From Candidatus Omnitrophota bacterium (GTDB lineage Bacteria; Omnitrophota; Gorgyraeia; Gygaellales; Profunditerraquicolaceae), in NCBI GenBank assembly GCA_030650425.1, contig JAUSED010000005.1:78932-142931 (forward strand): a DNA stretch of 64,000 nt, read 5' to 3'. Numbering within the stretch: the first letter of the stretch is position 1; each line of letters starts with the position of its first letter. Below the pieces are notes generated by a model. The model was not told the origin of the DNA. It searched no databases and worked only from the letters and a program-made list of their open reading frames with translations. A program made the position numbers and the translations under genes. This document shows, piece after piece, positions 33,001 through 63,000 of the stretch.

Positions 33001-36000
33001 ACTTGATTAGTTTGCTTCGATTGGAGTTTTCAGAGAATGATTTTAAAGAAATGCTTGTTGGCCTAAGGCAGGTACCCGAGTGGTTAATGGTTTCATTGAA
33101 TGACAAAAAAAATATCCGTCAACTTAAAAAATGGCGAACCTATCAAGAACAAGGTATCCCATTGGCGGCAAGGCCTGAAAGAATTGTGATCATCCCGGGG
33201 AAAAGCAAACATTCCAGCTTGGAGTGGCCGATCAAGGATAATTATGTTGAACTACCCGAAGAAATCTTAATAAATTATTCAGAAGATAGACTATCAGATC
33301 AGGATGTGTTTCCAGCAGAGGAAGAGCAATTTAGAAATTACCTGAAAGATATAGAAAATGAGATGACAAGAAAGGTCCTGTATTTGGCTTTAAATCACGA
33401 AGATATGGACAATATTATTAGATTAACGGGTTTGACGCAAGAAGAAATTGATAGGCACCTAATAGAAGGTGGAGAAAAGATCCAAAAGATAAGCGGTTTA
33501 AAGAGTTATATGGGCTATTTACAAGGAAAGAAGGCCGCGAGGGTTTCATCGCCGGTGACTTGCAGCTCTAGTTTAAACGAGGATCAGGCTAAAGAAAAAA
33601 TAACTTGGCAAGTCAGCCCTCTGCCGGCTTCGCAGTGGCCCTTAGAGCTGTTTTTGTCGCAATTAAAGACGGCCAGTAAAATATTAGGGACAAACTCGAG
33701 CACGGCATTTTTGCGGAAATATCGCAAAATACGCAGGGCCTTCCTGTTTCTCAGAGAAAAAGGGTTTCTCTCTGATTGGAATAGCGCTGTAAAGGCTACG
33801 GGAGGCCAACCAGCTTTTAGATGGACGAAAGAAATTTTTCTTAAACAACTAAAGAACGCCATAAAAGAGTCAGGCACGAGCGCAAGCTGGGTAATCAAAG
33901 ATAAATATCGTAAAATTTACAGGGCGTATTTACTCTACGGAATAGAATGGGGATTTCTAAATTGGGCTTCCGCGGTGAAGGCTTGTGGCGCAAAGCCACA
34001 TTTAAGAATAATTAAGACAAGGAAGATTTTTCTTTATAGGTTAAGACAGGTATTCGCGGATTTGGGCACAACTTCTAGTAGAGAGATTAAAAAAAGATAT
34101 CCTCAGCTTTTTATATCTTTTATCTTCTGTCAGGAAGAATGGGGCTATCTAGATTGGTCGAGCGCCGTGCGAAAAACTGGAAACCAGCCTATCTCCGGAG
34201 ATGAAATCAGATTGAACGTACATCTTCAGTTTTTAAAATCTAAATACCGAATTTATACGCTCCTTAAAGAAAATAAGAAAACCGATGCTAAAGAATTACT
34301 CAAAGGCCTGCTTGAAAATGGCGAAAGGGGCGTTATCACCCTGCATAAACTTATCCGGCCTCAATTTAAAGGCGGTTTGCCGCATATCTACCCGGAAATC
34401 AGAAAATATATTTGGAATTTGATCTTGGATTATTCCTTTACTCAAAAAGGGCGGATAAAGCTTGTCAGAAGGGATAAGCTGCCCGCTAGAGTCAGACACA
34501 GTTTTATTCAAGGTTTAGGGCATTGTTTGATTCAAGGGCGCCTGCCTTCCGGGGGTGAATTAATTCTGGGAGGGCGTTGGGGGGTTTTTGGAGAATATGG
34601 AGATTCTGAATATCTAGTAGAGATGAATAACGGTATACCGGTAAGGGTATTCTTCCTTAAAGACTACTCGGCATTTGAATTTTTTCCATATATTGACAAT
34701 ATAACGGGAGAGGTTATAGGTGTCCATTGGGGGGTTACAGAAAGGCAGAAACTCTCCGGCCTTAAAGACGTAACCACCTATGGTTATTTAGGCTCAAATG
34801 GTAATCTCTCTATCGGAGGAACGCGGCCGGGAGTTGATGGCCTTCTTCCTTCTGGAAAATATAAAGGCCTGCCTTGGGCGAGGTCATCCAATCATCCTGA
34901 TGAAAAGGTTAAGATTGTGATTAAAGACGGCCTTGTCCGCGAGTACTCCTCTTTGGAGTCTGAGCTTAAGGTGAGGCTTTCGCGTATTTATCATAAGCCA
35001 AGCGCAAAATACACTACGTCTTTCCAAAGAACCCTGAGTAAAGAAGAAACTAAGTTATTGGATGAGAGTTACGAAGTTTGCGATTATCGCTTGAATAAGA
35101 ATAGCGTGCTTAGCTTTTTAAGTTGTAAAATTAGTTTTAGCCTGCTTAAAGAGGCCAAGAACGCCTTGGTAAAATTAGAAGTAAGAAATGGCGGAATAGC
35201 GTTTGTAACATTTGTGGCGGATGAAAAGGGGAAGCCAATCTTAGATATCCACGACCAGGCCTTAAAAATAGACGTAAGAGAGAATATCGTCTATCAACTG
35301 CTTAAAAACTCAAAATCTCTCCGCCAAGAGAGATTAAAGAAAACACAAGGCCTTTTCGCGCAAGCAGAGCAATTATTGAATGATGGCCAATACGCAGAGG
35401 CAATAAAACTATTTAAGCAAGTCGTAAACATTGCTTCCAAAAGAAAGTTTAAGATTCAGGAAGAAAAAGATCTGGCGCGAAGGGCTTCTGAATATGCCGC
35501 GCTAGGCAAGCAGTATAGAACGGCCCTGGATGTATCTGGTTTGGCAGGGTTAGAATCCTTAGAGCCGCTTTGCCAGCGCGCTGTGGATTTATTTGAGCAA
35601 AGAAATTATGGCAAGGCTAAAGGCGTATGGAAAAAGGTGCTTAGTAGATTACGGGGCGCGCCTATCTTAGCTGACCAGAAAGATGCTTTAAGGGCGGCAG
35701 AAATCGCGATCCGCGGTTGTTTAGAAACTATAAATATTAAAATTGCCAAAGCATATTTTATTTCGGGTAAAGAGCATTATCTACGAGGGAATTACAGGAG
35801 GGCCATAAACTACTTTAGGAAGGTTTTGGATGTTCCTGTAGTCTTTAAGCATACGGCTGTGAAAGCCCAAGATTATATCAACCGTTGTAAGGATGCCGCG
35901 CTGGCAAGAAAATCCGAACTTTCTTCCCTTAATCTCTCTGGCCATTTCGATGAAAGTTCCCGCTTAGGTTCGCAGATTTTAAATAGCCTTTTTGAAAAAA

Positions 36001-39000
36001 TTCGGGCAGGTAAAGATGCTTACGATATAAAAACAATCAAGGAGGCGCGCAGAGCGGAGAAAGAAATCGTGGATACTCATCTCTGGCTGGTTAAGTTAGC
36101 GGCTATCCGGTATTTAAGAAATATTCAAGGGGTTAAAGAACCGGAGGTTAATCCGTATCTGGGCGATCTTATGCCTAAAGGGGTTTCAAAATTGCTCGAT
36201 ATTATCAGGATCTATGCTTATAAAGACAGGCAGTTTTCTGAAGATGAAATAATAGATGAGCTTGTGGCATTTTTCACGAAAGCGCTTTATGAAGACTCTA
36301 CGGTTTATAGAAAAATCACTTATGTGGAAGCCGCGCGCGATGATTCGGATGAGGCCGGCGATCTATCAGAAATAACAAGAAGTATGGCCGCGGTTGATCA
36401 TAATGCCCCTGATAAGATACTTGAAGACTTGGAAGCGCTGCCGTTAGACGAGGAGGACGCTTTGATCCAGCATAACCTATTGAGCCCTTACATAGATGCC
36501 ATAAAAGATTCTGCAGTAAGGCAGGTTGTCACTTTGGCTTTTCAGGGTTTAAGTATGGAATTTATTACGCGGCGAACCGAACTGAACGAGAAAGAGATCA
36601 ATCAGTATTTAAAACAAGGCGGCCAAGAGATCCAGAGCTTAGCCGGTTTAAAAGATTACGCGGCAGCGGCGAAGCGCAGTGCCTCGCCGGTTTCGGCGAA
36701 TAGGTCCATAGCCTCAAGCCCGGCTAATTCTCCTTCGACAATAGAAAAGATAACTAAAGAGATTGCCAACGCGCTTCAGCTAAGCGGTATTAAATCTCAA
36801 CTAGTTACTCTAGAAGGGCTATTTAATTATTTTAAAGAAGATTATCCCCAATTATTAGAGCCCGGCCGATCAAAAGAAGAGAAGTTCTGGTTATTGTGTT
36901 TGGGTTTTTTTAAGCTTGAAAATATCTTTATGCTGGAATGCGATTTAGGAGGGAAAATTCTTGAACTAAAAAATGAAATCCTGCTTAAGATGAAGAGCCT
37001 GGAAGAATCATTGCTCTCTAGCTATAGGGCCTTTGAGGTGGTTGAGTATTTTAAGCTGGGCTATGAAAATTATCCTTTTGATCTTAAGCGGTTAGAACAC
37101 GAGTCAGGAAAAGAATTCTTTGAGCTTCCTCAGAAACCAGAGAAAAGGGTTTTTGCGGGCGGGTGGGAAAGGCGGTATGCGCAGAAACTTTCTTGTATTT
37201 TCGCCAAGGAGCTACAAAGGGAATGGGAAAGGTTATCGCTTAAGAGAGATTACACCTTAGCGCCTCTTTATACACTCAGCGTAAATGAATTTATAGGAGA
37301 TACTAGGCAGTTTATACATCCTGCGAATTTTATTTACTACGATATGTCATTGTTAGATCCAAATAAAGGGATTACTGAAGCAAGGATTAAACAGGATATG
37401 ATCCTTAGTATTGCCTCTATGGATATTTATTTAGAATGGATAAGCCGGCATTGGGATTCCGACTTAATTAAACAAAAAGGATATACTTGGGAGAAAAATA
37501 GGATAAGCCTGAAATTCATAGAAAAAAACCAATCGCCTAACCTTTCTTTGTTTGGTAGAGCCCTTCCCCCTGTTAAGCTGAGGCCGTCTTACCGTATATT
37601 AAAAAATTTGACTGATGCAGAAGCGCTGGAGATTATATGTGGTACTCGGAGCGATGTTGGTTCTCCTCTAATTAGCCGGGAGCCAATGCGTACAGTTATT
37701 CCTGAAATACAATCTGTCGCTTCGCCGGTTTCAACGCTGGCCAAGGCTATTGGCAGTATTATATTTAATCTTTATTTAATATTTACTGCGCCTATTTATT
37801 CCACTCATCAATTAGTTTATGCGCGGATGCCTTCACAAGGTATTTTAAATATAGTTACAAGGCCAGTGGTTAGACGGTTTGAAGTTTTAAAACATCCGGA
37901 ATATAATGATTCCTTTTTGAATGCCGAAGACTGGCTTAAAGAAGGCAATAAGGATTTTGCGGTGCGGTTTTATTTACTCGGATTCCTTCAAAAGGCGGAA
38001 GTTATGGATTTACCTAATTTCTTAGAAGGCGCAGTAACCCTGGCTCAAGTTGAGGAGTTTATGGCTGGATACTTAGAATCCGTGTTGGAAGGCCTTGAGA
38101 ACTGCGTCGATCCGGTTAACATAGCCCCAATACAGGACTGGATCATTGAGCTTAAGATAGAGGCTTTGAATACTTCCAAGCGGCTATTGTCAAAAGAAGA
38201 TAAAACAAGGATTAGGATAGAATTCATTAAAAGATTGCATCAGCTTGAAGAAGGGCTAAACATAAAATCTCGTCCGCCACCGAAGGATAGAGACACTAAC
38301 CGCGCCCCCGGCATCTTCCCAAATATTGACTGTAGTTCATCCAGCCCTACTTCTTTCTTGCATCAGAATGATGCTAAGGATATCTATTTTAAAATTTGTA
38401 CCAATAATGATGTATTAGCTTATCGGGAACAGATTATCAGCCTTGCAAAGCCGGAGTTCAGTTCTACATATTGGGCTGAATTTATCGAAGACAGCTTTGA
38501 AAGCAAATCAGCGTTGTTTATCCTTATGTTTTCTAAAGAAGAGCTGATAGGTTTGGTTTTAACGCGTGACGGGCAAGATAGCGAGGAGGCATTCATTACG
38601 GCGTTTGTATTAGGCAGCCTCATCAGGCACAATGGTTATGGAATAAAAATATTCAGGACAGCCATCAAAGCGCTTAAAGACAGGAAATATACCTCTCTTT
38701 TTTTGATAACTGAGGAAGAGGAATGTATGAGAGGCCTGCTTGAAAGATTAAGGGCGTCGGCTGATATTATTAATTTAGAAGGCGGCAGGCCGGTTAGCGA
38801 TTACCAGTCATTCGCCAAGTGGTTTAGAGCCTATTTTCCTGGCAGCCCATTACCTAATGGCCCCGCCGCCTCGCCGGTTTTGGGAAAAATAGAGCCGTCC
38901 CCTATTTCGTCTTTGGCGATAGGGATCCTTAAAGAAGCCAAGGAACGGCTTAAGGAGTTTTTGGTGTTAAAAGTAGTTGTGGTTGGCATAATAGCAGCTG

Positions 39001-42000
39001 GAGTTATATTGGTAGCTATAGCTTATCTTTTTTCATTTATATATCGATTTTTCTATTTCTTTCTCAGAGATGCTCCAAGGCCGAATCTTGTTGAGCAGGC
39101 TAAGTCAAGAAGAAACAGCAAGAGACAAGATAAAGGAAAATTTTCAAGCTCTCTGGGAGCCATCGGAGCCTTTAGGGAACTTTTTAGCATAGATAATGAA
39201 GAGGTGCCTCTTGAGAAGATCCCAAGATTGATGAATAAGAAATGGGTAGATGAGATTGAAAAAGGCAACAGAATTATTGATGTGAAGACGAGGACTCTTG
39301 TTGTCCTAACAGTGCCATTTAATGAAATAGCCGACTTAAATATAGAGTTGAGTACTTTAGAGGTTGAAAGCTGCACAATGATTAGTTTCAGGGGTAGAGA
39401 TAGAGAAGGGAATATGGTTTTGGGGTTAGGCCATATTTTTGAGCCTGCGCGTAAACTGCAAGATTTTTCAGTTTTTGTTGTCCGGGCCCTATTGTCTATT
39501 CTCAAGGCTAGAGGCGTACATGAATTAGGCATGCTTATCCGTTATGACCCAATTTTCACCCAGCTCCCTAAAGAAATCATCAAAGGATGCAAGCATTTAT
39601 TCAAGAGGCCGGCTATAATTTTATCGAGAGAGAACAACTTAGTGGAAGATGTTATCGTTACTCCAAGAGGGGTAACGCGGGCCTTATACCAATATATAGT
39701 ATATGAAAGTGCCGGCCGTGGTTTTATTAGTCGAGAAAAAGTTGTAACTTTGTTTTACAATTGGGGTACCTTTAACACTGCCGCTTCGCCTATGCATACC
39801 CCGGATGAGGATAATAAACGAATATTTATTGAAGTAAATAACTTATTTAAGCAGGGCCGATTTAGAGAGGCCGTGGGCAAGTTGAGAGAGTTATTAAGTT
39901 ATCCTCTCGTTAATTTGGACAGGGCAAAGGCTTTGCATATGCTGGGAAGTGCCTTTATAGGATTGAAAAAGCCTTACACTGAAACAATGTTCTGTTTGGA
40001 TTCAGCCTTGCGCTTACTTAAAATTGATAACGTCCAGACACAAGAGTATTTGGATTTAGAGCTAGACATTAGTTTGGGGTTGGGACTTACGTATAATAAA
40101 TTAGGGCTTCCGGATAAAGCGCTTGGATGTTTCGAGAAGATAATAGAAGGATGTAACGACAAAGACATGCTTGATGCCGCGCGTCAAAGTATGCTGGAAG
40201 CTTATTTGATTAAGAAAGATTTTCCTGTTTTCTTTGATAAATTAGGCGATTATTTAAGCAGTAATTCAAATATAGATATAAGAGATATGACCTCCGTCTA
40301 TATCCTTGTGAATAGCTACCACCGTTATTTGGATGAGCATATCGATGAGGCAGGGATCCGGGGGGTTATTTTACTGGCAGAATTTTATTTCAGGCGCGCG
40401 GAAGAGTTATTAACCAAAGAAAAGATAAAGAACCATTCAGAATTTGACCTTTATCAGGCAGGAAGGGTTACCGCTGGTTTTGCTTTTATTTTCCTGCATC
40501 TTTACGCAAACAGCGATGTTCTGCGGGATAGGCACATCGCGTATTATTATAGCGGCAGATGCCTGCTGCATATAGCATGGTTTAAGGAATATTATTTAGC
40601 CAATGTGAATATAATTTTTTCCGCAGAAGGCCTAGAGTTAAATTTGGAGAATATGAAAGAAGTTTTGTCATTGGCAAGCGATTATCTGCTGGATGCCATA
40701 TTGATTGCGGAAAACGATGCTAAAGGCTCCGACGTAAGCTTTGTGAAAAAGGTAAAGGCTACCTTTTACGCGATATCTAATAAATTGAACTCTTTCGGGA
40801 TTTCATCTAGCCCCTTAGATGACGATAATCATAAATTTGAAATATTGCCTATGTTTTTATTAGTATCGCAAGGCGGTTCCGCCGCCTCGCTGGTTTCGGA
40901 AGAAGGGGGAGTATTTATTTCTTATCCTTCATCGGTTGAAGAGAAAAATCAATCCGTTAGTTCATCCATCACTGCGGCAGAGATAGCTGGCATATTCCTT
41001 GAAAGAAGCTGGCTTTCTATTTTTCCAGCAGCTCTTTTCTGGGCAGGTTATTATTTGTTTAAACTTCGCAAGAACATTGAATCTCAAAAAACAAGTTTTA
41101 ATTATTTATCCGTAAATAGCCAAAAGCTCTTCGATTTCAGGAGATTAATCCCTCAAGATAAAAAGGAGGTAATTATCTTGGCATCAATAGCCCTGATAGG
41201 GCTTACCACTATTGTTTTTCCAAGCCTATGCAGGGAGATTATACAGCTTGGCCAAGTAGTTAATCATCATCATATCTGGAAACTTCTTAATTATATTGTT
41301 GGAACGACAGCTGTAATGCGGGCTATTATGGTAGGAAGCAGAACGTTTTTATTTTCCGGAATATATTTCTTTTCAATGATAATATTTTCAGCTTTATGCT
41401 CGGTCTTTATCTTAAATAATATAACCTTATACGCTTATGAGTGCATTTTTGGCAACTTTAAGGCCTTTTTAGTCTTTATGGGAGCATTTTTCATAAGCGA
41501 TATTGTTGCTATGTTCAATAGGTTGATTTATAAAAAGGAGACAATAGGAAAGAAGAATGGTAAGCATTCATTAGGCGATAAAATTAACAGTAACGAAGCA
41601 AGTCCTACTAAGGAAATAAATTCCGGGACCGGCGCAGCTCATAATGTTAAGATAGCTCCGTCTTCTACCCGAACCAAGGCCAGCCAAGAGTTCCTATTGA
41701 GATATCTCCAAGAAACGAAAGAAAAGATAAACCGAAAGGGCCAAGATTCTAGTTCGCCTTTAGAAAATAAAGTTAATTCAGTAAATAAAATGGATGGCTC
41801 TATTTTGCCAAAAGACAACCCCGCCGCCTCGCCGCTGGCGGAAGAAATTGCGGATTGTAAAGTTACGATGGCCGGCTCATCCAGCCCTATTGACAATCCT
41901 GAAGCCTGTAACATTAATGCCGCTGAGATTATGCATAGCTCTATCCTTATGTTTTTAATTGAAAACCCTTATAAAGAGGTTAATCGGGTAAAGTTAAGCA

Positions 42001-48000: not shown

Positions 48001-51000
48001 TAGGCGCCGCCTCGCCCATAACTGCCGCAGGGATAATTAACCTATTCCTTTCCTCATCTCCGGTTTCTGAATTGAGGCAGTATCTTGAAAATAATAAGAA
48101 TCCAATGGTAGGGAAATTTTTGAGTTGGATAGATAATCGGGGAGAATCACAAATTAATACAATATGGGAGAGCCAGCGCCGATTAGCTGAAGAAATAGGG
48201 ATATCAGAAATGACTATTTCTAATTACCTGCGCAGGATTCAGGCATTATTGCAGTTAGAAAAAAAGCCGCTCATTAAGATAGAACTAAAAATAAAGAGAA
48301 GGACAATAGCGGATCAGATAGAGGAATGGGCTTTAAATAGGGAGCCCAGCCAAAAACTCAAAGAATGGGGAATAAAAGAATTAGCTGCCTTGTTTGGAAA
48401 AACTCCCCACAGCATAAGGCAGGCGCTTCCCGCGATTAATAAAAGATTAACTGAACGAAACGAAGAGGAAGTAAGAGCAAATAAAAAAGAAGAGTCAGCT
48501 GAAGGCTATAAAAAAATAGCCCCAGCAGATGGCTTAGAGTTGTTTATACGAGAGGTTTTTAGGAAGATGGGTAAAGATGAGCAGCGGGTCTTTAATTACG
48601 ACTTTGAGGGTGGTAATGATATATTTAAGGGAACAGGATTAACCCTGAAGCGAGTTGAGTCATTAATAAGAAGCAGTGTTGTCAAGATTTGTAATGCGTT
48701 TGGAACGCAAGACGAAAAGGCAGCTTATGAAAGATATCTGGATTTCAAGAAGCAATTGAATGCAAGCCACAATAAAGAAAGCTTAATAGAAGAATTTAGG
48801 GTTGGTGAGAGCGTTGAGAAAGAGGCAGAGGAAAGAGATGTAGATGATTCTGAAGCATATTCTCAGGTTCAAGATAATTCCATTGATGTAGAGAACCAAG
48901 AGGCCGCCAAGCATATAAAACGCCCATCCTCCTCGCCGATTCATAACAGTGAGCAAAACCCAGAGGAAGGCTTAAGGCGGATCTCTGGAAAGGCAGAGTT
49001 TACAGAAAAGATAAAACCATATCTTGAGGTGGGGGCAATGTATATTTTGTTTATAGCGGCTTGGATAGTTTTTGGCATTATAGGAAAAGTGCTGGATATT
49101 ATTAAGCCGTTTCTATCTAAGTTAATAGGATTCTTACAGCAAAAAACTTCAAGCAGAAGGAAAGATTCTAAGATACATAAACATATGGGAAAAGGGGATA
49201 TTTCTAAGTTAGGGAAAGAAAATGGTGCCGCTTCGCCGCTGACGCGAAATATAGAAAGAGCCAACGCAATATTTAACAGAGTTCTTGAGGCAGCCAGTAG
49301 GAATTCAAAAAGAAAGTATGCTATTAAGCTCTTCATTAAAGAAATAGACGCATACGGTAGGGCTTCTTTAAGCGGCAATTATATTACAATAAATCCAAAC
49401 CAGTTAGGTAATCCAGATTTTGAATTAGCTAAATTAATGGGCCATGAGATTACCCATATAACCTTGGGGCATATTTGGATTGTACGCATTGGATTCAGGG
49501 TCACAACCGCATTATTTTCAATCCTGTTTGCCGCAATGATAAGCGGGATTATTACTGAATTTGACGCGCTTCTTATTGCCGTGGTATTTTTAGGTACGGT
49601 GTTGATGTGTTACTTGGTTACTCAAAGCGAAGCCGATAAGAAAGGTAAGCAATATGCGATATTAGCCGGATTTGGAAATGATACAAAACCTTCGGCTTCT
49701 AAAAAAGCCAGTCATTCCGGCTCGCCGGTAGAAATCATTAGATATGATGAAGTCGATAAGAATGGGGTATTATTTAACCGTTTTCGGTTAATCTATGGAA
49801 CTAATAACCAGCCGCAAAAGCGAATTGTAGAGGTAAGGCAAAAAGGTTTTGAGCCGGTATCTATGTTGAATTATACCTCGCGTAAGATTCACGATACATT
49901 CCCATATGCAGCTGAAGGGCTCTCTCAAGAATTTAGCTGGCATGGCGAAAAAATGCTGGGTGATATGCCGCATACTACCACTCAAAGCGCGCTGTTAGCT
50001 TTAGAGAGGATTAATATTACAGGGAAAACCGTGATTGACGCTGGAACCGGTGATGGAGTATTAGCTATTATGATGGCAAAGCAAAAAAGTGAAGTTAAAG
50101 CTGCGGATTTTCCTTGGATGTTAGAGTTAGCCAAGGAGAACGCAAGATTAAATGGCGTCTATGATTCTATAGAATTTATCGCAGCTACTTTTCAAGATTT
50201 TGGACGAAATTACACAGGGCCGGTAGATATTTTGGTAACTAACATTGGGCGCATGGGAAGTTATCAGAGATACGAGTCTCTATCTAATTTATTCAAGCGA
50301 GCGCAAATTATTATTTTGGCCGGCAGTGAAATGAGGCCTTATGCTCCGTATGCGGATGTTAATCATCCATTTCATCCCTACGACGGGTATCCCTTCTTTA
50401 AAGGAGATAAGTTTATTCCTCTACTCAAAGTAATAGTCAGAACAAAATATTCAAGCGCTGAATGGGCGGCATTGGTTCTTGCCGCCGCCTCGCCGGTCAG
50501 TCAGTTAAATCAGAAAGGCTTAAATTGGAAAGAATTTTTAGGCAGGGTAAAAGAAGCGCGGGTGATTTTGGTAAAAAATGATCTTCATTCTCCCTCAGGC
50601 GAAGCTCCTTGGATATTATCACCAACTGAGCAAGATAAAAAGGTATTCGCAGGAAATTACAACAAAGTTACAGAATTATTAAGGAACCTTCGTATCCTCG
50701 AAGCCCTTGAATTAGATACACCGGATCCGCACAACGATGTATTAGATGATGAAGGGTTTTTAAAGCTGATTGGGGCATTTATGGCTGGCGCCTCTAGCCC
50801 ATTGCGAAACAAACCCGCCGCCTCGGCCGCAGGTATTCCTAATAAAATAATAACCAGAAAGAGATTCGAAGATTGCCTAAGAATAAAGAATTGGGTTAAT
50901 CTTAAAGGCGGGTATAAGAAAGTTTGGTATCCGGGTTCCGGTTCTGATGTGGCGTTGGCCCTGTATGCTACTAATGGAGATGAATTTACCCTTACAAATT

Positions 51001-54000
51001 ATACACTCTTTGGAGAAGCGGATGATTTTAGCAACTTTGAGGGTTGGGAGAGGGAATATCATTATCATTTAAGATGCACCCACAGTTGGCTTAGCGTTAA
51101 TTACTATAGATGGAATAGTATAAGCGCGCAGATTTTCTCTGAATTAGAAGCGATAGGGGTAAATTTTGATGATGTATTAAAGACAAGGATTAATCCTGCG
51201 AGATTTAGACTGGAATTTGATTGGCAGCATCCTTCTGAGAAGATAGCCAAAACAAGGATTATTGACTATATAACTCCGGGCTGCGACTTTTATACTCCGG
51301 AAAACAAGGCAGATATCATAATTATCAAGGCGTTAGATCAATTTCACATTAACCCGCAGGACATGCTTTCTTTCTTAAATCAAAATGGATTTATAGTTAG
51401 CGATATTTATCTGGAGATCCTAGGAATCAGGCCCGTTGCCTTGAAGCTCAGCCATAAATTTGGATACGCCCATAACTTGCCATTCGGAGAATTAGTTGGA
51501 TTAACTACGGGTACGGATGTATTTTTATACAGGAAAATTTCCGCAGCCACTATTTTTAATGGCCCCTCGCGGATAAGTTCACCTATTAATCGCCAAGGGC
51601 AGGCCCCTCAAGATGAAGGCCTTAATAAACAGATTGAGGCGTTAATCAAGATAGTAGGGACAGGGGACGTCAGGGCATCTATTAAGTTATTCGAGATAGC
51701 AGAAGCAGGAAATTTAGGCCGTGGCTTTGTTACTGAGATTTTTGCCCTTCTGAAAGACGAACGTAGGTCTGCGCGAACCGATGCCGCGGTAGTGCTGCAG
51801 GTTGCAGCCTGCAAAGACATTGAAACAATGCTTGAACTTATTGAGCGGACAATAAATGACGAATCGTTAGCGGATGAACGCTACGATACGCATGGCCGTA
51901 TGACTTGGCCTCAGCGCCTTACCGTAAACATCATTAATGAAAGAAAAGGCCAATACATTTTGGAATCTTTAGAATCATTAAGAGGTAATTCTTTACAAAA
52001 GGATATGGTTATAGATTTTATCTTGGATTATGGCAAGTATATAAACGGCTTCTTTAACTTTGCGATCTTGCTCCTCGATAATAAATTATTAAATGATAAA
52101 CAAATCAACAAGATTATCTATGATGTATTTGGCGCGCCTGTTTCACTAAGTAGAATTCGTAAGGCAGCCATTTTTAGTCAACCTCAAGAAATTCTTCCGA
52201 AAGAATTAGGCCTAAAGATACAGACAGATTCTAAAGTAATTATCCTGTCCGGATGCAATTATCCGTTACTAAGGACAGAGGCTCTGATAGAGGATTTAAG
52301 ACACACATACCACTTCGACAGCCGGGTTTCATTTACGGAATGGCCCGTAGAGGAAACGCCCTTTGGCTACGCATTGGATGCCTATAACTTTTTGAAAGAG
52401 CGCTCTCAAGAAATACCTTCGCTTGGAAAGATGCTGAGAGCGATGGAAAGTCGCTCAGGAGAGATTATCGAGGCTTATAAAGAGGAGCTTTATAAGCCAT
52501 ATCCGAATTGGTATTATCTATTAAAAGAGCTCAATGAGATTATGCATCAGGTCCCTTATGACGCAAAATTACTTTTAGGCATCCTTGATTCTTATGCGAG
52601 AGAGATTTTCCATGAAGCTAATTGGATTAAAACATCGCAAGAGAGCATTCCCGGCACCTATATTATATCTTTATATGGAGGGTTATCTGCGCATGACACA
52701 CCTTGGATTTGCGCGGGAGAGGATTTATCAAGCCTTTTAGGCCGGATATTAAAGGAAAATCAGATTGATTGGCGCGCGGAAGAAGACAAGAGCTTAGCAG
52801 GCCTTAGAAACTATGCATACATTGTATTGCCGCTTTCATTAGTAGGCAGCGGTAACGAGGATTTACTGAAGGCCATAATCGGCATATACTTTTTACCAGA
52901 GATCGGTTCTCTTCGCAAGCCAATGCATTCGCTAAACTTAGAGTATGTGATTTCCCACACTGATTCCTCCAGAAGATTTAGCATCGATTTAAAGAAAATC
53001 ATAGATTCTTTACTAAGTACCTTTCCCAAGAACCTTTCTTCGCCGATTACTCTTGCCTGCGGTAAACCGTTGCAGCTAAATCCCGCCGCCTCGCCGCTGG
53101 CTGATAAAAAAAATCAAGATGAATTCAGGATGTTTGAATTTATGGATTTGTTAAGCCAGGATTTAAATCAACATTCCGCTGAGTTAGAGAAAAATAGCCC
53201 TAAGGTTGCGGTGTTTTGTTCTGCCAGGATTAATTCCGGAAAATATTGGGAACTGGCAAAGGCCTTAGGGGCTTCGCTAGAATCTTCCGGTTATACTATA
53301 ATTACCGGAGCTGGCCCGGGTTTGATGGAGGCGGTTGGCGAGGGCGCAGGCCAAACTATTGGGCTGAATATTAATATGCCGAATAAACAAATTCCTAATT
53401 TTTACGTAAAGGAGTGTTTAGAATTTCACAATTTCTCAATAAGAAAGGCTATATTTATCAAATACGCTGATGCCTTTGTAATCATTCCCGGAGGATTAGG
53501 AACTTTAGATGAGCTTCTTGAGGCCTTAACCTTAAAAGACAGGGGATATATCGATGCCCCAATCATTTTATTAGATAAAGGATTTTATTCAGGTTTATTT
53601 GAATTTCTAGAGGGAGTCGAACAGGCTGGTTTTTTGAGAAAGCCCCTTAAAGAATTATGCGTCCTTGTTGATTCTGTAGATGAAGTTTTGCGATATCTTA
53701 AACTAAATAAGGCGCCTCTCAAGCAGGGGAAAAATAATATAGATATTAAACAGGTTTTGGATAATCTCAAGGAGTCATTGGCCGAACTGCAAGGCATAGA
53801 ATCAGCGGTTGGTATTCTGGGCTCGCATTCGTTTGGGAAAGACTCTTCCTCTTATAGGCAGGCATATAATTTAGCCAGGGGTTTTTCCAGAGGTGGCAGA
53901 AAAATACTTTATAGGGGCTGTCAGGGGATTACCGAAGCAGTTGACAAGGCCATTGAAGCAGAAAAAGGCGTGGGTATATCTTTTTGGGTCCCGGATTATG

Positions 54001-57000
54001 AAAAAATTCAGCCGGTTATAGGTAAACGATTGGTTTCTCTGCACAGGTTCGCGCAGAAGATTCTTTTGATAACGCATAGCAGGCTTGGGCTTATTTTCTT
54101 TGCCGGAGGAATTGGCACGCTCGATATATTATCCGATGCTTTATGTTTGATTCAAAATAAAAAGATACAGGCAATGCCTATTGTATTAGTGAATAGAGAG
54201 TTTTGGCAGCCTTTGGTTAGCTGGCTGGAAACTATTTTGAAATCAGGGGCAATATCCAAGGAGGATATTGAATTAGTTAATCTTGTTAGTACAAATGAAG
54301 AGATAATGAAGATTATCGCCGCATCTTCGGTTTTAGGCGAGCAAGCGCGGGATTCGAGCGAATATCGTTTAAGTTCGCCTGTGAACGAATCCTGCGTAGG
54401 CCAACCCTTAGACAGACCCTCTCAAATTAGTAATGTAGACACTTTACACAACTCATCGCCTGTCAAGCAATTAGGAAAGAAAATGCTTCTGCGGTTAGAT
54501 ACCGATAAAAAGTATTCGAGCTCTCCGGCAATAATAGAAGAGATAGCCGCGGCAATTACAGATTCGCTCAAGCTGACTGATTACTCTGGTTCGCCGTTGT
54601 TCTCCTATACTTTCTGTTTCCCTGCCACAATACGTGGCGGAAGCTCGTCTATGTCCGTTTCACCTGTAACTTATGTAGCCTTGGTGGTTTTATATTCATC
54701 TACCTCGTTTTTGATAACAGAAGGAGCAGGATTATTAGTAAACCAGCTTTTTCTAATTCCGCAAATTATTTGCGCTCCGCCAATAGTAAAATATGCAACT
54801 AAGCCCGTTTCCTCGCCGGTAGGGGCTGTTGGCTTCAGCTCGCCGGTGGAAAAAACAGTTGGAGCGACGGTGGTGACGCGAGGCGCCGCCTCGCCGCTTG
54901 GTGAATGGTCAAGTGATAATCTTAGGCAGCAACTTAAGCAGATTGAAGGGAATGTTTTGAATTTGCTGAAGAAATATTCTTTGCCAGAGTTTACGGATAT
55001 TGTTTTACATCCTGTCGCGTATCGTTCTTTAATCACGTGGTTAAACGCAGTCATCAAAAGCCGTGAAGATATACAAGATTTCAAAAAAATGCTGCAGAGA
55101 ATGGAAAAAGACTTTCTGGGGAGTATTTCCGGATTTGTTGCTATAATTTCTCCTGAAGAAAGAAAATCTTTAGTAGAATCTTTAGAATCCTTTAAGCGGA
55201 AGGCAAACGATAAGTTAAATGGTTTTATTACTGAAGCAAGAGAGCTGTATGGAAGGTTTTTGAAGTTGACGCAGCGGGATTTAGAAAATCGTTTTCCGGG
55301 AGAAACTACTCTTATTCTCTTACGGATAATGAGGACAGAGCCTATTAACCGTGAGTGGAATAGGGTTAGGGAAAATGAACATTTCACTTTAGATCCGTAT
55401 CATGGCTATACAAAATTAGACTGGAGAGTGATTATTGTTGCGCAAGTGCCTTTCGGGAGAATCAAAACAACCCCATGGGTATTGGAATCAAGTAAGACTG
55501 AAGAAGAATTTATTGTTTCCGGAGGCCTTCTAAACGTTGTCCAAACCTTTGATAAAAAAGATAAATGGATTAAGTGGAGAGAAGCAAACAAGGATTATTT
55601 TTATGCCAAGCTAAACTCGGCTTCTTCGCCAATCCTAGAAAATAATCAAAGTCTTCTCGTAGCTGGACGAAGTCCTATCAAATTTATTGGCTTAAGCTTG
55701 CCTGTGGAGGGAAAGCTTAAAGAGGTTTTCCTCTATGATAAGCTAGAAGAGAAACTGGTGCCGGTAGAGGCCAAAATCCTTGATACTCAGGACCCTGAAT
55801 TCAACGGTTTTCAGGATGCTGTAAGGGAGTGGTTAGCCTATTCTAGGGATGGTTATGCTATTGATAAAGCTAAAGACCCTCTAACCGGAGAAATTATTAC
55901 TATTCCTCATATCCGTCCTCTTGCCAGCCAAATTATCCAGAATGGAATCACTACTAAAGAGCACTTTATCGTTTTTAAGACAGCCGAGCAGGGAATTATT
56001 GCCTTTGTTCGCCTAAAGTTAAGGCCGCGCAGTATCCTTGGTGCCGGGTTTATTGTTTCTCCGGTTATCCGGCAAGTTAAACGTTACGATACGGAAACTC
56101 TCTTAATGGCCGTGATTCAGTCAATCATCGAATTTAGCCTTCAACAATTGGGCAGGGTAAGGGTGTGGGCGGATCCAGCTAACCGAAAGATGCTGGATTA
56201 TATTTTGCTATTTGGGCCGATAAGAAGACAAGGAAAATTCCTGGTAACGGACGAGGCCGCGCGAAGAATTCTGTGGTACATCCGTAAAAAGATGGCAGAT
56301 TATACCGCAACTTTAGCTGAGCCGGAAGAGAAAAAGTTGGATGGTTCTATTTCCGGCGCCTCCTCGCCGCTGGATTTAACGGTTGGCTTAAGTATTATCA
56401 TCTCCTATGCCTTATTAGTTCCGGTATTTGATTTATACCTGCGTAGGACTATTCAGCGTAAGACCATAGAAGAATTTAAGAAATTCCCATATCCTGTTTG
56501 GATTATGACATTCGCTTTTCTATTATTAGCATGGAAATTCCCGCCGTTGCACAATATTATTTTTTACCTCACCGCATTTTGTCCCGGCATTTTCCTTTCT
56601 TTGATAACGACACTTTCTTTGGCGACTATTTTTAGCCACCGAAAGACCAAGAAAATCATTATACCTTATTATTTATTGCGGGAAGAAGTGAATTATATGT
56701 GGAGACTATATGTCGTTAATATGAAGATTATTGAAGCCGTTGATATCTTTTTCTCAGCTGTGGCAGTCGCCTTCTTTAGTTATTATACCCATGCAACAGC
56801 TTATTTCATACTAGTAATGCTTCTAAAAAGAGCCGGAGTTCTATATCTAGCCCGAGGGCTCACTAAGGAATTTTCTTTAGAGCTTGAAGAGAGATACGAT
56901 GGGGGCAGGGACTTTATAAAAAAGTTTATCACAACAGAGCAGTTATTAGGAACAGATATTGCGCTTAGAGCAAAGGGGGAGCATAAGATAAGCTATAATT

Positions 57001-60000
57001 GCCCGCGGCCAATAGCTTTTGCGTTTAGTTATAAAGGATTAGTTCTGTATTTAGAGGAACCGTATCTTGCTTATTATTTATACCCTTGGTTTATGCCTGT
57101 AGTCAGAGTGATTCAAGAGATCTCCGGCTGGAGAAAGGCAAGAGACCGCGCGAAAGATTCTCTTCCGCAAAGCGAAGCAGCTTGCGGCGGATTAATTCCG
57201 CAGCGTATTGAGTATAGAGATGGGGCCGCCTTGCCGCCGGGATCGCATATCGTCGTCTACGAGGAGAATGGGAATGTAGACGTTGTATATAGCCCATTGT
57301 TTAACAAAGGGTTACAAAACAAATCTTTAGGATATCAAGATGGCCCCGCCGCCGGCACTGAGCCTAATCGAAGCGCCTCGCCGGTTTCAGGAGAGACAGA
57401 ATTATCTTCGGCTTCCGCATGCCTTAGCCCCGCTAAATCCCGCGATAGCCCTAAGGGGAATAAATTCTTAACCTTAACTTCTGCTTTTCTTATTTTTCTT
57501 ACCTCCTTCCATCTTTACCTTAGTCCTTTGCGGGCCTATGCTAACCTTAAGGTTAATCTAAGCGTAATCACGCCCCAAGCGTCACAAGAGCGCCAAGAAA
57601 CCGAAGAGCTTTATAATCAGGCAAGCAGGCATCTAAAGAATCAAAAATACCAAGAAGCGCTGGATCTGTATATAAAGTTAATTAAGCTAGCGCCCAATTA
57701 TATAGATGCCTACATTGACAGGGCCTATCTTTATATCCACCTTGCTCAAGAAGCAAAACAAACAGGTAAAGATACAAAAGGCCTTAGGAAGAACAGAGAC
57801 AATGCAATGTTGGATTTAAAGAAGGCTGAGGCGCTTACTTTAAAGGCCATAAAAGAGAAATACTTTACTAAAGAAGAAGGCAATTTGGTATTTGCCTCAA
57901 TCTATAATCACTACGGATTATTTTATTATCACCTTGAAGGTGATTACAAGAAAGCAGTTAGTTATTTTGAGCAGGCCATAGGCTTAGAGCCGGATAACCC
58001 GATAAATCATAATGATTTAGGGGGAGCCTATTTTAAGTTAGGTAAATACGGCCTTGCCGAAGAGGCATATACTAAGGCAATTGATAAAGCAAAAGCCGCC
58101 AAAGACAATTACGCGGGTTCCCGCATTTACGCAAACCGCGCATTCTTAAGGTTTAAACTCGATAGATATAAGGCGGCAAAGCAAGACATACAGGAAGCCA
58201 CTAGTTTAAATCCCAATTTAAAGAATGATAATAATATCCAAAATTTATTAAAGGAGATTGAATTGAAACTTCAAGAGCGAGAAGGGGTTATTGATTTGTC
58301 TTATCTAAAACTCAATAACTCCAATATCCTTCAGCAGGCTTCCTCGCCGGTTTCGGAGAATAGAAGGGGACAGTTCTATCGTAACTGTTCATCGGCTATG
58401 GAGATAGACAGAGACGGTCTGGAGGATTCTAAGGAAGCGCTTATCGCGCCTTTGCAACATCCCTTAGGCAGGCATTTATATATAGGTACTGATGAGGAGC
58501 GAGACTTATCTAAATGCAGGCAATTGTTATTTGCAGCTTGTCTTGAACTTAGGATATGGAAGAAGCGATATTATTTTGAGCAAGTTGAAAACAGGATATG
58601 CAAGGATCCTTCGTTTCGGACAAAAATAGGCCTTATTGTCTTATTGCGCGATATCCTGCTTAATTATGACGCTTCTAACGTAACGGTTGCTTTTGTAGAC
58701 AGGCTTGAGGGTATTCCGGAAGAACTGATATCGTTCCTTTTAGATGACGAGATCTTATCAGCTTATTTGAATTATCAAGATGAACTTCGAAAATATAAAT
58801 ACATGGATGATAGGGCTATCGAAACTGGCTTTTTCCCATTTTATTATCTATGGTCAGCGTATAAACGCGGGGAAATGCGTGATGCCAAAGAACTCAAAGA
58901 GAGAGTTGTTAGCATCCTTAAGGGTTTTGGCTATGATAAAGCATTCTTCAAGCTCCTAAATGACTTAGCGCATAAGAAAAAGGCGGATTTTAGCCTTGAT
59001 AGCGGCGCAGACGAATTGCGGGTTTTCTTTAGGGCCTTATCCCGTAAAGATATCGTTGAGATTTTTAGACAGACCTTATCAACTCAGATTCTGCCTTCTG
59101 TTAAAAGGCATAGAGCTTCATCTGTAATACAAGGTACCGCCTCGCCGCTGAAGGAAATTGGATCAGAAACCCAAAGAGAAGCAGCCAGGGGAATGATGGT
59201 CATTGAATTGCCCGTGGATGCCGACTTGGGCGAGATCATAAATCACAAAATTGTATATGTTAAGAATGACGGGAATATTAGCACGATTAATGAAGGAAAT
59301 ACAATTAAACTACTACATCCTGATGGGCTAGAATGGAATCTTAGCTGCAAGGTAAGGGATTATCTAAGAGCTACATTTAGCTTAGATTACTCTCTCCTAG
59401 GATTAAAACCTCATCCCTCAACACTTGGAGCGATATGGGCAATGGAAAGGTATCCTACCAATAATCAGCAAGTCCTTGACGCGGGTTGCGGTGAAGGGGT
59501 TTTCACGATTTTGGCGGCTAATTTAGGAGCGAGTAAGGTTATAGGCGTTGATTTAAAAGATTTCATTATTGGACTCGCAAGAAGAAATGCTGAATTAAAT
59601 CGCTTAACTCATATTATTGAATATCACAAACAGGATTTCACAAAACCGTTACAACTATCTGTAAATAACATCAAGTTTGACAAGATCATAACTAATATAC
59701 CCTGTGGTTATACTTATATGGTTCCATCTTTATTGAGGCTTTATCCGGAAGTCAAAACCTTTATTTGGGCAGGTGATTACGTTCATCAAGAAGGCCGCGA
59801 GTATATCGTGGAGGGATCAGAAGAATATATTAGGGAGATTCAGGCATTAGGATTTCGATTCGTAGAAAAATTGATTATTCCTCAAAGAGGTTTGTTTTAT
59901 CCAGAAATTATTATTTGGAAGTGGGTGACATATATCTTAAAGCGGGAAATTAACGAAGCAGGCGCCGCCTCGCCGCTGGGGAAAAATGATCAAAATATCC

Positions 60001-63000
60001 TTATCCCTGAAATTATTTCTGAAGCTATTGCAGAAGAAGTTCAAAGAATGCCGGCTTGGGAACTTTTATCTGTTTTAGATCTCAAAAAGGCCAAGCTACT
60101 TTTTACTAAAAGCGGTCCTAGAGAGCTTACTGTCCACAAGATTAAAGTGCCAAAGCTTGTAAATAAGTATAAAGCGCCAGAGGGTTTAAGTATTCTGCCG
60201 TATGAACTTTTTGATACGACAGAATTTGAACTTTTATACAATAAAAAAGGATACCTTATCGCGATTTATCCGGTTCTCCCAAACGGATTCCTGATTAAAT
60301 CTGGCGAACGACTCCCTCACTATTTTGATTTTAGTGAATATTATTTTAAAATTCCGGAATTCGGTGATCCGAAAATGATTGAAAAATGGGATGCCTTCGT
60401 AAAGGATGTCGGCAGAGATCGGGAAGCAATACAGGCTTATGAGGATTTAATCGGGATAAAGGGTAAGCTTGAAAGGCGCCCGCGTTGGGTACCTTACATC
60501 TACGCAAATCTTGATTATCGGGATAATTTTCCATTTGCTCGGGCTTTTTACATTGAGATGTTTAGCCGTTTGATTAAAAAAGATGAAATCTCGAATAAAA
60601 TCTCTAGAGACATAATCCGGTCTATTCTTCCTGTTTTTCCGACTGTTTACCATCCGGGATCCCATTTATTGGATGATTGGAAATACATTTTAGCTGTTAC
60701 CAGGCGTCTTGATATCCAAAAAGACCATGATATTTTGGTTGTTGGCCCGGGGAATGGCCTTGACACTTGGTTTGTTTCTCGGCAAACAAGGCGGAAAATT
60801 TATGTTGCGGGAATTAATCCTTTGGAAGTTGCCAATACCAGGGCTGTCGCAAAAATTGCCGGGTTTAAGATAGAAGCCAGGATTTACGACAACATTATTT
60901 CTAAAGACGGCGTGACTGTCTTTAATAAGAGATTTGATCGGATTATCTGGAATATGCCCACATATTATCCGGTTGCCCCTAGAATCCGGGAAAGCCTTGA
61001 AGAATGGGAAGATAATGATTACGACGGTATGATCTTAAGGCGTTTTGCCGGAGGCCTTCCATTACTTCTTAAACCAAATGGAATTGCTTTGGTTTGGAAT
61101 TCCGCTGCCGGAAAACTTTTAGATGAGGTTGAAGAAATCTTAAAAGCAAGAGGAGCGCTAGATGTGGCAGTCGAAAAATACCCGGGTATGACGTATTTAG
61201 CCAATATCGAAATGGGCACGGAAACCATTCCTACCGCGCTTTACTTTATCCGCAAGGGAAAAAATCCGGATGCAGCAAGCGCCTATTGTGTCAGTTCGCC
61301 GCTGAAAGAAATAGTTGGAGCGACGGTGGTGACGCGAGGCGCCGCCTCGCCGGTTTCGGGGGGAATATTCCTAACTATATTATGGCCTAAAGACGGTAAT
61401 ATCTTTAATGCGCTCAAAATCTCTGTCATTAGTAGCGATATTCCTAATCTTGCGGATTCTCATAAGAGCAAGATTGAGGGCATCGTTTGTCAACAAGCCG
61501 GATTGCTTAATGATCAATTGGGCAGTATCAAAGACACTTTCATTCAGCGGCCATATCTTGATGTTCAGTTTAGGGATACTATTTATGGCTATATGACACT
61601 TACTGAGTTCTTTGGTTATTTGCGGATGGGATTTAAGGTAGGAGACAGCTTTATGGGAGGATATATTGTAGATTTCTATGGTTTCGGCAATCATAAGACG
61701 ATGCAGAAGCTCAGCGACTACAATAACAGAAGTATAAGCAATTATTTCTTTTTGCTCGCAGCGCTGAAGAAAATTGGTGGCGTTATCATTGATGCCCAGA
61801 AAGTGGTATATAAATATATTGGAGTCAACGAAGATTTTTTTACCGGATTTGACTTTGGCGAGCATCTAATTATTCAAAGGGCTAAAGTTAGGGGATTCAG
61901 CAAGTATCTTAGCAATGCCGCGTTTAATATGTATGATAGCGCGAGTAACTTCAGTGGTGGTTTTAGGCAACTCAAACCTTATTTCTATCCTCTGATGTTC
62001 GGCAAGGGGAACCTTGGAGAGCGGGCGAATGACCCCTCGTTCATAAATTCCCAGTATAGTCTTAGTCATATTTTTTCTCCTTCTAAAAAAGTATACCACG
62101 CTCTTAACGGGGTTGTCAAGAATATTAGTCTTGCCGCCTCGCCGATAAGGATCTCTCCATTTCTCAGTGACATATTTAGAATGTTTCATATGTTTGAGGT
62201 AAATGAATCTATTTTAAGCGAAGACGGGAAAGAGGCGCAGCAGTGGGTTAAGAAAATCATTGGCACAATGCAGAGGCCCCCTGTCGGCCTTATTACAAAT
62301 AATAATGCAGAAAAGCTCATAGCGCTTATGCCTAATCCACGGAAAATATCTCTCGGTGGTTGGTTTGATCTTAGCAGCCTCAATTTTGGAAGCGATGATG
62401 AATTTGGCTTTGGTTGTTTAAGGCCTTGCCCGCATTGTTCAGAAGGGAATACAAGAGCGCGGGTAACAAATCGCACGCTGCCGCCTGCAATAAAGCTTAT
62501 TGAAGAGATGCGCAAGGAAGGCCAGCAAGATACGTTAAGAGGCCTGAAAACTTATCCCGGAAGGTTTCTGATCCAAGGGTGGAATAACACCGACCTTTTC
62601 TATTGGTGTGATCCTTTCTTTAGAGTCTATTTAGACGGCCTTATTGAATTTATCGCGCGTCATTACAAAGATAGAAAATTCCGCCTGCGGATAGCCACAA
62701 TCGGCCCAAACATAGATGACTGGCGCGCATTTATCGTAGCAAAGAGTATTGACAATCTGGTGCTTCAATATCCTGAGTTAAGAAATAATATATTTAGTCT
62801 ATCCTTGCATTTGGCCTTATTTAGCACCAGAGGGTTTGATTATAATACTATCTCTGCTTTGTATGAGCGCAAGATAAATCCACAGCGGCTGGCTAAGGTT
62901 ATAGATAACTATGTGGCCCGCTACGCAGCTATTATTGGCGTTCTCAAGAATACGCTAAGAACGGTCAAAGTATTTCTGTCAAATGAAAGCAGTGAATTTG

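Follow-up and report, generated by a model that had tools for sequence, protein, structure and literature searches.

Stacked Ser-Pro border motifs in a junction-dense stretch of a giant multi-enzyme gene from Candidatus Omnitrophota

The closest described counterparts of the DNA considered here are the class-1 giant proteins of Omnitrophota, which combine many cytoplasmic enzyme and signalling domains with scattered transmembrane segments (West-Roberts et al. 2023, 10.1101/2023.11.21.568195; Nielsen and Lui 2026, 10.64898/2026.06.07.730766). Whether such giant genes yield one chain or cut products, and where their units end, is an open question: cleavage points are stated as unknown, and their lack blocked per-unit structure prediction (West-Roberts et al. 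2023, 10.1101/2023.11.21.568195). By term search, neither paper mentions a border motif or a junction cluster. Here we analyse a 64,000-nucleotide stretch of DNA from a Candidatus Omnitrophota bacterium (the window) and, within it, a junction-dense stretch of 176 codons at window positions 54372–54899 (+ strand), in which eight short [S/G/A/V]-S-P-[V/L/A] motifs follow one another. The reading that we favour, and which we hold to be somewhat probable when taken as a whole, is that this stretch is a compound inter-module junction whose stack of border units grew mainly by copying, and whose motif acts as a boundary signal at the level of the peptide.

The window contains one open frame. Nucleotides 3–63998 (+) comprise 21,332 codons with zero stops, open at both ends, and the other five frames hold 802–2021 stops; no gene boundary, promoter or intergenic DNA is found within the 64 kb, and neither start nor end of the gene is in view. 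Along the frame lie the Pfam families HATPase_c, HD_4 with RelA_SpoT, CheR-like, GerE, TPR, GGDEF, HTH_3, GNAT, radical SAM, Metallophos, Peptidase_M48, LOG (Lysine_decarbox, twice) and a PrmA-like methyltransferase (twice). More than 15 unrelated enzyme and signalling families are thus represented, none of them dominant (LOG and PrmA-like reach at most two copies each, besides runs of TPR), and about 17 distinct hydrophobic segments are spread along the chain in a Kyte-Doolittle scan. As in the class-1 proteins, where frames of at least 10,000 codons carry many families and scattered transmembrane-type segments, a frame of more than 21,000 codons is combined with methyltransferases, HATPase_c, GNAT, HD, radical SAM and GGDEF, and the best homologs come from metagenome-assembled genomes (MAGs) of Omnitrophota. 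The stop-free frame, the Pfam modules and the relatives all identify the window as part of a giant multi-enzyme gene of the Omnitrophota type. The multi-module relatives found are large contig-truncated fragments, P0003 and P0005 from Candidatus Omnitrophota MAGs and P0004 and P0008 from JGI metagenomes; the window itself carries no marker gene.

Matches to [SGAV]SP[VLAIM] number 80 in the window where 4.7 are expected (300 residue shuffles: mean 4.6, maximum 11), and SSP[VLI] occurs 40 times where 0.92 are expected; on the first expectation, about 5 of the 80 matches should be due to chance. The residue-order control [SGAV]PS[VLAIM] has a single match, scrambled-order controls overall have 1–15, and the 47 matches of S[SGAV]P[VLAIM] reflect its overlap with the motif in its SSP form. 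As a consensus the motif reads [R/G/P]-[S/A]-[S/A/G]-S-P-[V/L/I], set in flanks rich in S, P, A, N, T and G, with Glu enriched 2–2.6-fold at the next two positions.

The motif recurs in three of the four relatives, with observed over expected counts of 41/1.0 in P0003, 8/0.54 in P0005 and 10/1.0 in P0008, and of 4/0.33 in the last 3,314 residues of a 47,181-aa gene upstream of P0008. Neighbouring ordinary genes have no motif in 10,907 residues. As far as these comparisons reach, the motif appears to be specific to giant genes and to recur across genomes.

The original prediction started from the premise that the motifs mark module borders, and this premise is supported. Immediately upstream of the stretch, a tandem LOG/SLOG unit (53091–54371, +; two Pfam Lysine_decarbox matches, E 1e-51) lies between motifs at aa 17696 and 18124, and aligns to residues 17–449 of P0001, a stand-alone tandem-LOG protein of 450 aa. 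Immediately downstream, module X (54900–55625, +) starts directly after the eighth motif (aa 18299) and is homologous to the C-terminal half (residues 283–572) of P0006, a stand-alone protein of 572 aa: the last residue of P0006 coincides with the end of module X, which is the next motif (SSPI, 55623). Similarly, the Rel-like unit begins at its motif: the residue 22 positions past it aligns with residue 23 of solved Rel structures. The following module, A1 (55626–56363, +; aa 18567–18766), is common to P0003 (36% identity) and P0005 (45%), and in all three genomes the motif stands at its N-terminal edge, with the motif Pro an invariant column of the alignment, though the neighbouring modules differ in each. 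Finally, the median distance from a motif downstream to a hydrophobic segment is 84.5 residues, compared to 191.5 for random positions (P ~0.001), as it should be if each unit has retained an N-terminal anchor of its own. Together these data support the view that the motifs mark the borders of protein-sized units, and a short conserved signature at such borders is also what is seen in protease-processed polyproteins. Several larger modules of the window open with a hydrophobic segment 3–45 residues past the motif.

The distances between motifs are bimodal (27 of them at most 60 residues, 47 of them more than 150). When grouped accordingly, the motifs of the window fall into 53 clusters – 33 of one motif, 18 of two, one of three and one of eight – with a median length between clusters of 315 residues. 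The usual border is either one motif or a pair enclosing a spacer of 4–60 residues, and the stretch at 54372–54899 is the sole cluster of more than three. If motifs were placed uniformly, a maximum of at least eight in 177 residues would have a probability of 3e-4; with the window's own inter-motif gaps shuffled, the probability is 0.013. The eight-motif cluster is real, and it is the extreme case of a general habit of paired borders. All eight motifs of the original prediction (eight in about 530 bp) are present, at coordinates that differ by 1–6 nt from those first given. The smaller clusters that it named at 41757–41883, 18054–18114, 36683–36717 and 10539–10572 are likewise found; at 18632–18665 the named site exists, but its second motif is SSPT, which lies outside [SGAV]SP[VLAIM]. 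A second junction-rich segment of the window lies at aa 19057–19173.

The eight motifs, all in the + frame that starts at nucleotide 3, begin at 54372 (SSPV), 54453 (SSPV), 54519 (SSPA), 54588 (GSPL), 54657 (VSPV, the least canonical), 54810 (SSPV), 54837 (SSPV) and 54888 (ASPL), and are separated by 27, 22, 23, 23, 51, 9 and 17 codons. Three parts can be distinguished. In the first (54372–54668, +), the initial five motifs are encoded by non-canonical codons and spaced by 27, 22, 23 and 23 codons, and the spacers are in turn polar and disorder-prone, basic, acidic and amphipathic, and then FSYTFCFPATIRGGSSSMSV. The second (54669–54809, +) is a hydrophobic segment of 47 residues between two motifs, containing TYVALVVLYSSTSFLITEGAGLLVNQLFLIPQIICAPPIV, with a Kyte-Doolittle maximum over 19 residues of 1.76 and the lowest TOP-IDP values of the stretch; it is possibly a membrane-embedded hairpin. 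The arrangement motif–hydrophobic segment–motif is seen again at ~48009–48065 and 57426–57530, where single transmembrane-like segments are bracketed by border motifs, as if anchors were mini-modules. The third part (54810–54899, +) carries three motifs with canonical GC-rich codons, and the GC content of 54800–54900 reaches 0.65.

A short element, common to only two of the seven spacers, ties the stretch to ordinary borders. The pattern AT[VI]x0-2RG[GA] occurs only four times in ~47,000 residues of giant proteins, always with a motif on either side: two of the four are in the stretch, one is at aa 20439 (61296–61355) and one in P0005. The first of these, the 23-residue spacer unit GSPL FSYTFCFPATIRGGSSSMSV SPV (54588–54668, +), is 50% identical to aa 831–858 of P0005 (SSSPLDVFRSSATVRGGSDTLCVGSSPV) and has the same motif spacing of 23 residues, with a marginal pairwise E of 0.05–0.4. 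The second lies in a GC-rich double border unit, SSPV EKTVGATVVTRGA ASPL (54835–54899, +), which has a paralog at 61291–61355 (+), set between two ordinary modules: the two are 91% identical over 65 nt and 80% identical as protein (family D10). Since at least two of the seven spacers are thus of a conserved, ordinary border type, these comparisons indicate that stacked border units of the ordinary kind, and not a decayed domain, make up the stretch. A spacer kept between genomes is also seen at another junction, where window 57285–57330 (VVYSPLFNKGLQNKS) and L002 ~9394–9438 (VLSSPLSNKHLQNKS, on the contig that carries the P0003 gene) are identical at 33 of 45 nt.

The stretch has, as first noted, almost no domain content: it gives no Pfam match at E ≤ 10, and none to NCBIfam or Rfam. 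Nor is it a recognizable repeat domain, since no DNA tandem repeat (TRF, 54200–55100, score 30) and no Pfam or NCBIfam repeat family is found. No homolog of the stretch as a whole, the elements listed above apart, is found among 5.8 billion proteins (word-indexed search with aa 18000–19000) or 1.84 billion representatives, where phmmer returned five matches, none of them spanning it; GTDB genome contigs and JGI metagenome contigs queried with aa 18000–19000 gave no orthologous region, and a profile of module A1 recovered no contig beyond the known one and had no match in viral contigs. Eight weak matches of an adhesin (P0007) to aa 18262–18332 were judged to be a low-complexity artefact.

The original prediction offered a flexible, modification-rich linker as one account of the stretch. 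Its polar outer parts fit: TOP-IDP is 0.13–0.24 at both ends. Its middle does not, being at or below the protein mean of 0.07, and as low as -0.06, over aa 18190–18259, so that disorder-promoting composition does not extend throughout. A hydrophobic middle and regularly spaced motifs could instead mean that the stretch is a small functional unit in its own right: a membrane hairpin with amphipathic helices, or a short-repeat fold with a period of ~23 residues, in which SP motifs cap helices. Four successive motifs at 22–23-residue spacing, the like of which recurs at 24426–24633, the presence of the 47-residue segment and a low-confidence model that would place helices in two spacers speak for such a unit, and Ser-Pro-hydrophobic followed by Glu resembles the capping box at the N-terminus of a helix. 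Yet it has neither family nor structure-based support, its units are unlike each other and, the motif apart, unlike the 24426 array, and no homolog of the whole has been found in the searches described above; we regard such a unit as very improbable. The array itself, a second regular run at window 24426–24644, consists of four SP[FVL] motifs spaced by 23, 23 and 23 codons; at 24426–24633 it shares with the 22–23-codon run only the motif (RGSSPVNE vs RLSSPVNE), and no DNA tandem repeat was found when looked for there.

How, then, did a stack of borders arise? On the reading that we favour, seven or eight border units follow one another directly from the tandem-LOG module to the module after it in a giant Omnitrophota-type multi-enzyme frame, separated by nothing more than short spacers and a single hydrophobic mini-unit, and the stack would have grown mainly through DNA-level copying of border units rather than through module loss. 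Direct evidence for copying comes from the 65-nt duplicate, from a codon gradient suggestive of old and young units (the last three motifs of the stretch are canonical and GC-rich, the first five not) and from repeats in P0003. The latter has clusters of seven and eight motifs within 127–133 residues, largely made of units of 176–200 nt that are 93–95% identical to one another and bracketed by GCCTCGCCGCTG. These units hold 8-nt tandem arrays, (GTTCGCCA)n, whose translation yields GSPVRQFAS.

The alternative, and the one first suggested, is serial module loss: were each module to carry a motif at its N- and at its C-terminus, in-frame recombination between the two would delete its body and leave one motif with the spacers that formerly stood between modules, and some six adjacent losses would leave a stack of empty borders. 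That the stretch is a stack of borders stands, two of its segments being ordinary spacers; that the stack was left by loss has no direct support. The means for loss exist, given that all copies of a GC-rich core within the motif (GCCTCGCCG, see below) share frame and strand, so that recombination between any two would be in frame, and module order varies among relatives, so that modules do move or get lost. The mini-segments (9–51 residues) match the spacers of ordinary double borders (4–60) in length, and two of them are of types seen between real modules. In addition, module X has nothing that corresponds to the first ~280 residues of P0006, a gap that loss would explain, and the stretch occupies exactly the place where these residues would stand. 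However, no relative has been found that keeps modules at this position, the N-terminal half of P0006 leaves no residual similarity beyond a 14-residue hydrophobic match (E 0.5), and there is none to LOG or any other module terminus. The sole event in the stretch that can be dated is a duplication, and the counterpart clusters of P0003 are demonstrably built largely by amplification. None of the observations calls for serial loss; it seems unlikely, and we weight copying at roughly three times module loss.

Two more specific forms of decay were tried and set aside. The proposal that mini-segments are remnants of the termini of other modules fared poorly, as short-query BLAST against the rest of the protein returned only the border unit at aa 20431–20450. 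A degenerate third LOG domain, suggested by a BLAST extension, has no Pfam match at E ≤ 10, and its best BLAST score is 15 bits against a shuffle mean of 18 bits. The context of the stand-alone P0006 (L034) was also considered as an 'unfused' giant gene, but its neighbours match only TPR segments.

The motif has a layer of conservation in the DNA as well. The 9-mer GCCTCGCCG, often lengthened to GCCGCCTCGCCGSTG, occurs 15 times in the window where 0.12 are expected, always in frame and on the + strand, never on the other (examples are at 41826, 53088, 54888, 59967 and 61344), and 19 times in the P0003 gene (L002 25–15372), with no copy in 10 kb downstream. The motif Ser is TCG in 46 of 80 cases (58%, compared to a background of 12%; p 3e-22), and the motif Pro is CCG in 50 of 80, compared to 31% overall. 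Such figures invite a different explanation, in which the GC-rich core is an element of the DNA or mRNA, fixed in strand and frame and peculiar to giant genes – either a joint at which modules are captured or recombined in frame, or a group of rare codons ending in G or C that makes ribosomes pause when they reach a border – with the peptide as its mere translation and the stretch as an array of such elements. The existence of the 65-nt duplicate fits this account, as do the 8-nt arrays of P0003, from which border motifs arise out of a DNA repeat, and the folding of a single copy of the 176-nt unit, which is more stable than shuffles (z -3.5).

Against it stand the results on structure and on codon choice. 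Junction-centred windows of 60 nt have no excess of RNA structure (mean z -0.13 vs -0.22 for controls, p 0.79), nor has the GC-rich double border unit of the stretch (z -0.29), and the window's copies give no palindromic structure signal; Rfam searches of the borders yield nothing at gathering thresholds, with only weak chance matches at E ≤ 1. The signs of a structured cis-acting RNA or a hairpin recombination site (attC-like, terminator-like, Rfam) are thus not seen. S-S-P is encoded both by TCG-CCG and by AGC-CCN, and a quarter of the motifs are AGC-CCN, unrelated as DNA and equal as peptide; the first five motifs of the stretch lack the canonical nucleotides. Of the in-frame variants that differ from GCCTCGCCG by one nucleotide, 13 are synonymous, 9 affect no residue but the first, which is tolerant, and 6 destroy S or P, whereas under neutrality breaking changes should be double the synonymous ones; synonymous variety is greater in those relatives that have fewer motifs. 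A signal that is primarily one of the nucleic acid is, in our estimation, quite unlikely. We take these patterns to reflect purifying selection on the peptide, probably acting atop an ongoing DNA-level copying of the GC-rich border unit.

A related idea is that the frame-locked core GCCTCGCCG(STG) is the joint at which whole genes are captured, duplicated and shuffled in frame, building the giant frames. We consider this improbable; if true, giant genes would have a bacterial counterpart of exon shuffling, with borders that are compatible in phase, and junction-dense stretches such as 54372–54899 would represent arrays of cassettes, empty or minimal, that the shuffling machinery left behind. 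Two other roles for the DNA word were rejected. A word skewed genome-wide (Chi, uptake sequence or repetitive extragenic palindrome) does not agree with the absence of the 9-mer from the 10 kb that lie beyond the giant gene in L002, and internal initiation of translation past the motif is unlikely because fourth codons are not confined to start-capable ones (34 of 80 are not). Viral contigs fished with the DNA motif GCCGCCTCGCCGCTGGCG gave 27 matches, all of them single chance occurrences in GC-rich contigs.

Decayed copies of the border, in which the surrounding DNA repeat is kept and Ser or Pro is lost, were observed at window 40885–40896 and 57222–57240 (GCCTCGCTG, read as A-S-L, and GCCTTGCCG, read as A-L-P), and similar broken copies are found in P0003. 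The GC-rich in-frame unit of 176–200 nt in the P0003 gene, described above, is present in four copies (L002 7885–8060, 9499–9674, 11893–12092 and 12772–12971) and is reminiscent of in-frame repetitive insertion elements. The 8-nt arrays of this gene lie at L002 357–391, 7910–7938, 11918–11970 and 12797–12849: they comprise (GTTCGCCA)3.6–4.4 together with related arrays of the GCCAATTA type of up to 5.5 copies, and none occurs in the window. Adding or losing one 8-nt unit would cause a frameshift that cuts the giant protein short, which makes these arrays possible slippage switches.

As to what the motif does, Ser-Pro-hydrophobic would on our reading be maintained at the peptide level as a boundary signal. 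The form of this that we prefer, tentatively, is that of a recognition or cleavage site at which a polyprotein-like chain would be processed; cuts at the motifs would make the stretch a break zone that falls apart into short spacer peptides. The strict core of the motif, its conservation across genomes, its restriction to giant genes, its frequent pairing round short spacers and the metalloproteases embedded in the chains were all counted in favour of a recognition site over a passive linker. Slightly less plausible to us, though still a serious possibility, is that the motif remains uncut and serves as a hinge or helix-start signal, in which case the stretch would be a long, partly membrane-associated tether. 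Candidate self-processing enzymes are present within the giant frames themselves. In the window there is a Peptidase_M48 membrane metalloprotease module at 48933–49721 (aa 16421–16551); P0008 (L033, gene 10001–30142) has a faint M48 match (precomputed) and a faint Rce1-like (CPBP) match; and in P0003 a HEIGH motif followed by a hydrophobic stretch is visible in the sequence, unconfirmed by a family model.

Several observations weigh against the reading of the stretch as a compound junction grown by copying under a peptide-level signal. P0004 (6,608 aa) has no motif where 0.83 are expected, despite two modules in common with the window: the signal is not universal, and this is a difference within the class-1 type itself. 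Copying is seen for the last unit of the stretch and would extend to one more, but the first five units have no detectable mutual similarity. The middle of the stretch is hydrophobic, unlike a linker, and alignment-free structure prediction for aa 18080–18359 is uninformative, the predicted local distance difference test score (pLDDT) being 33 throughout, the known LOG part included. Conservation of the core at the nucleotide level goes beyond what selection on the peptide alone explains. Against the putative cleavage it also counts that most proteases disfavour Pro beside the scissile bond.

Some further features of the gene and its relatives deserve mention. The antisense frame over the downstream end of the stretch (54671–55387, –, 238 codons), originally described as GC-rich, has a GC content of 0.41, equal to the window mean; only 54800–54900 reaches 0.65. 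About 0.09 open runs of this length are expected in its frame, its length being near chance, and it has no Pfam or NCBIfam match: we rejected it as a gene, and it is consistent with chance. Internal paralogous modules of 30–40% identity, including a run of HTH repeats, pair window 10542–11500 with 31005–32100, also involve 31941–32850, and pair 33273–33615 with 36402–36765 and 49953–50250 with 59394–59670; duplication of modules inside the gene appears to be old at the level of sequence. A module of 272 residues at 34323–35138, which has no Pfam match at E ≤ 0.01 (scan in 5,000-aa chunks), is 41% identical to aa 6213–6482 of P0004, a giant fragment with SecA-like domains, and modules are therefore common to motif-bearing and motif-free giant genes. 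In the relatives, the same genes follow the giant gene in L002 (15598–24841) and L033 (30129–38839), namely PilZ, a sugar-binding protein, two ABC permeases and a GH2/GH72-like glycoside hydrolase, so that the giant genes of these two relatives occupy orthologous loci. The locus in L033 is split into genes of 47,181 and 6,713 aa, 56 nt apart.

As a border signature that recurs across genomes, the motif offers an objective means of segmenting giant proteins in silico, and names the exact peptide bonds to seek in proteomic data, while nucleotide conservation and duplicated units hint at how giant genes grow. The stretch is the densest local expression of this signature: border units can, it would seem, exist and multiply without modules between them.

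Three known systems bear comparison. Rickettsia palindromic elements are in-frame repetitive insertions that add peptide segments between functional parts of a coding sequence. They resemble the present units in being short, GC-rich, repeated and in frame (the 65-nt unit occurs twice in the window, and the one copy of the 176–200-nt unit of P0003 that was folded does so better than random), but differ in that the units described here are confined to giant genes, as judged from the flanking genes examined, are much shorter in the window and give no palindrome signal there. Linkers of multimodular proteins – Pro/Thr/Ser-rich in cellulosomal scaffoldins, and also found between the modules of polyketide synthases and nonribosomal peptide synthetases – have a biased composition and no fixed motif. 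The borders of the window are likewise rich in small and polar residues and their motifs likewise stand between folded units, yet they have a strict S-P-[VLI] core that is shared across genomes and in part at the nucleotide level, and part of the stretch is hydrophobic. Viral polyproteins, such as retroviral Gag, are cut at short conserved junctions, among them type-1 sites of the form X-Pro, and release spacer peptides. Here cleavage is putative, the residue before Pro is Ser rather than an aromatic, the units number more than 60 and the setting is a bacterial chromosome. The architecture is nonetheless alike: whole proteins are joined in one frame, a short signature of Pro followed by a hydrophobic residue stands at their borders, paired sites enclose spacers, and a protease – M48 in the window, a candidate for the processing enzyme – is carried in the chain.

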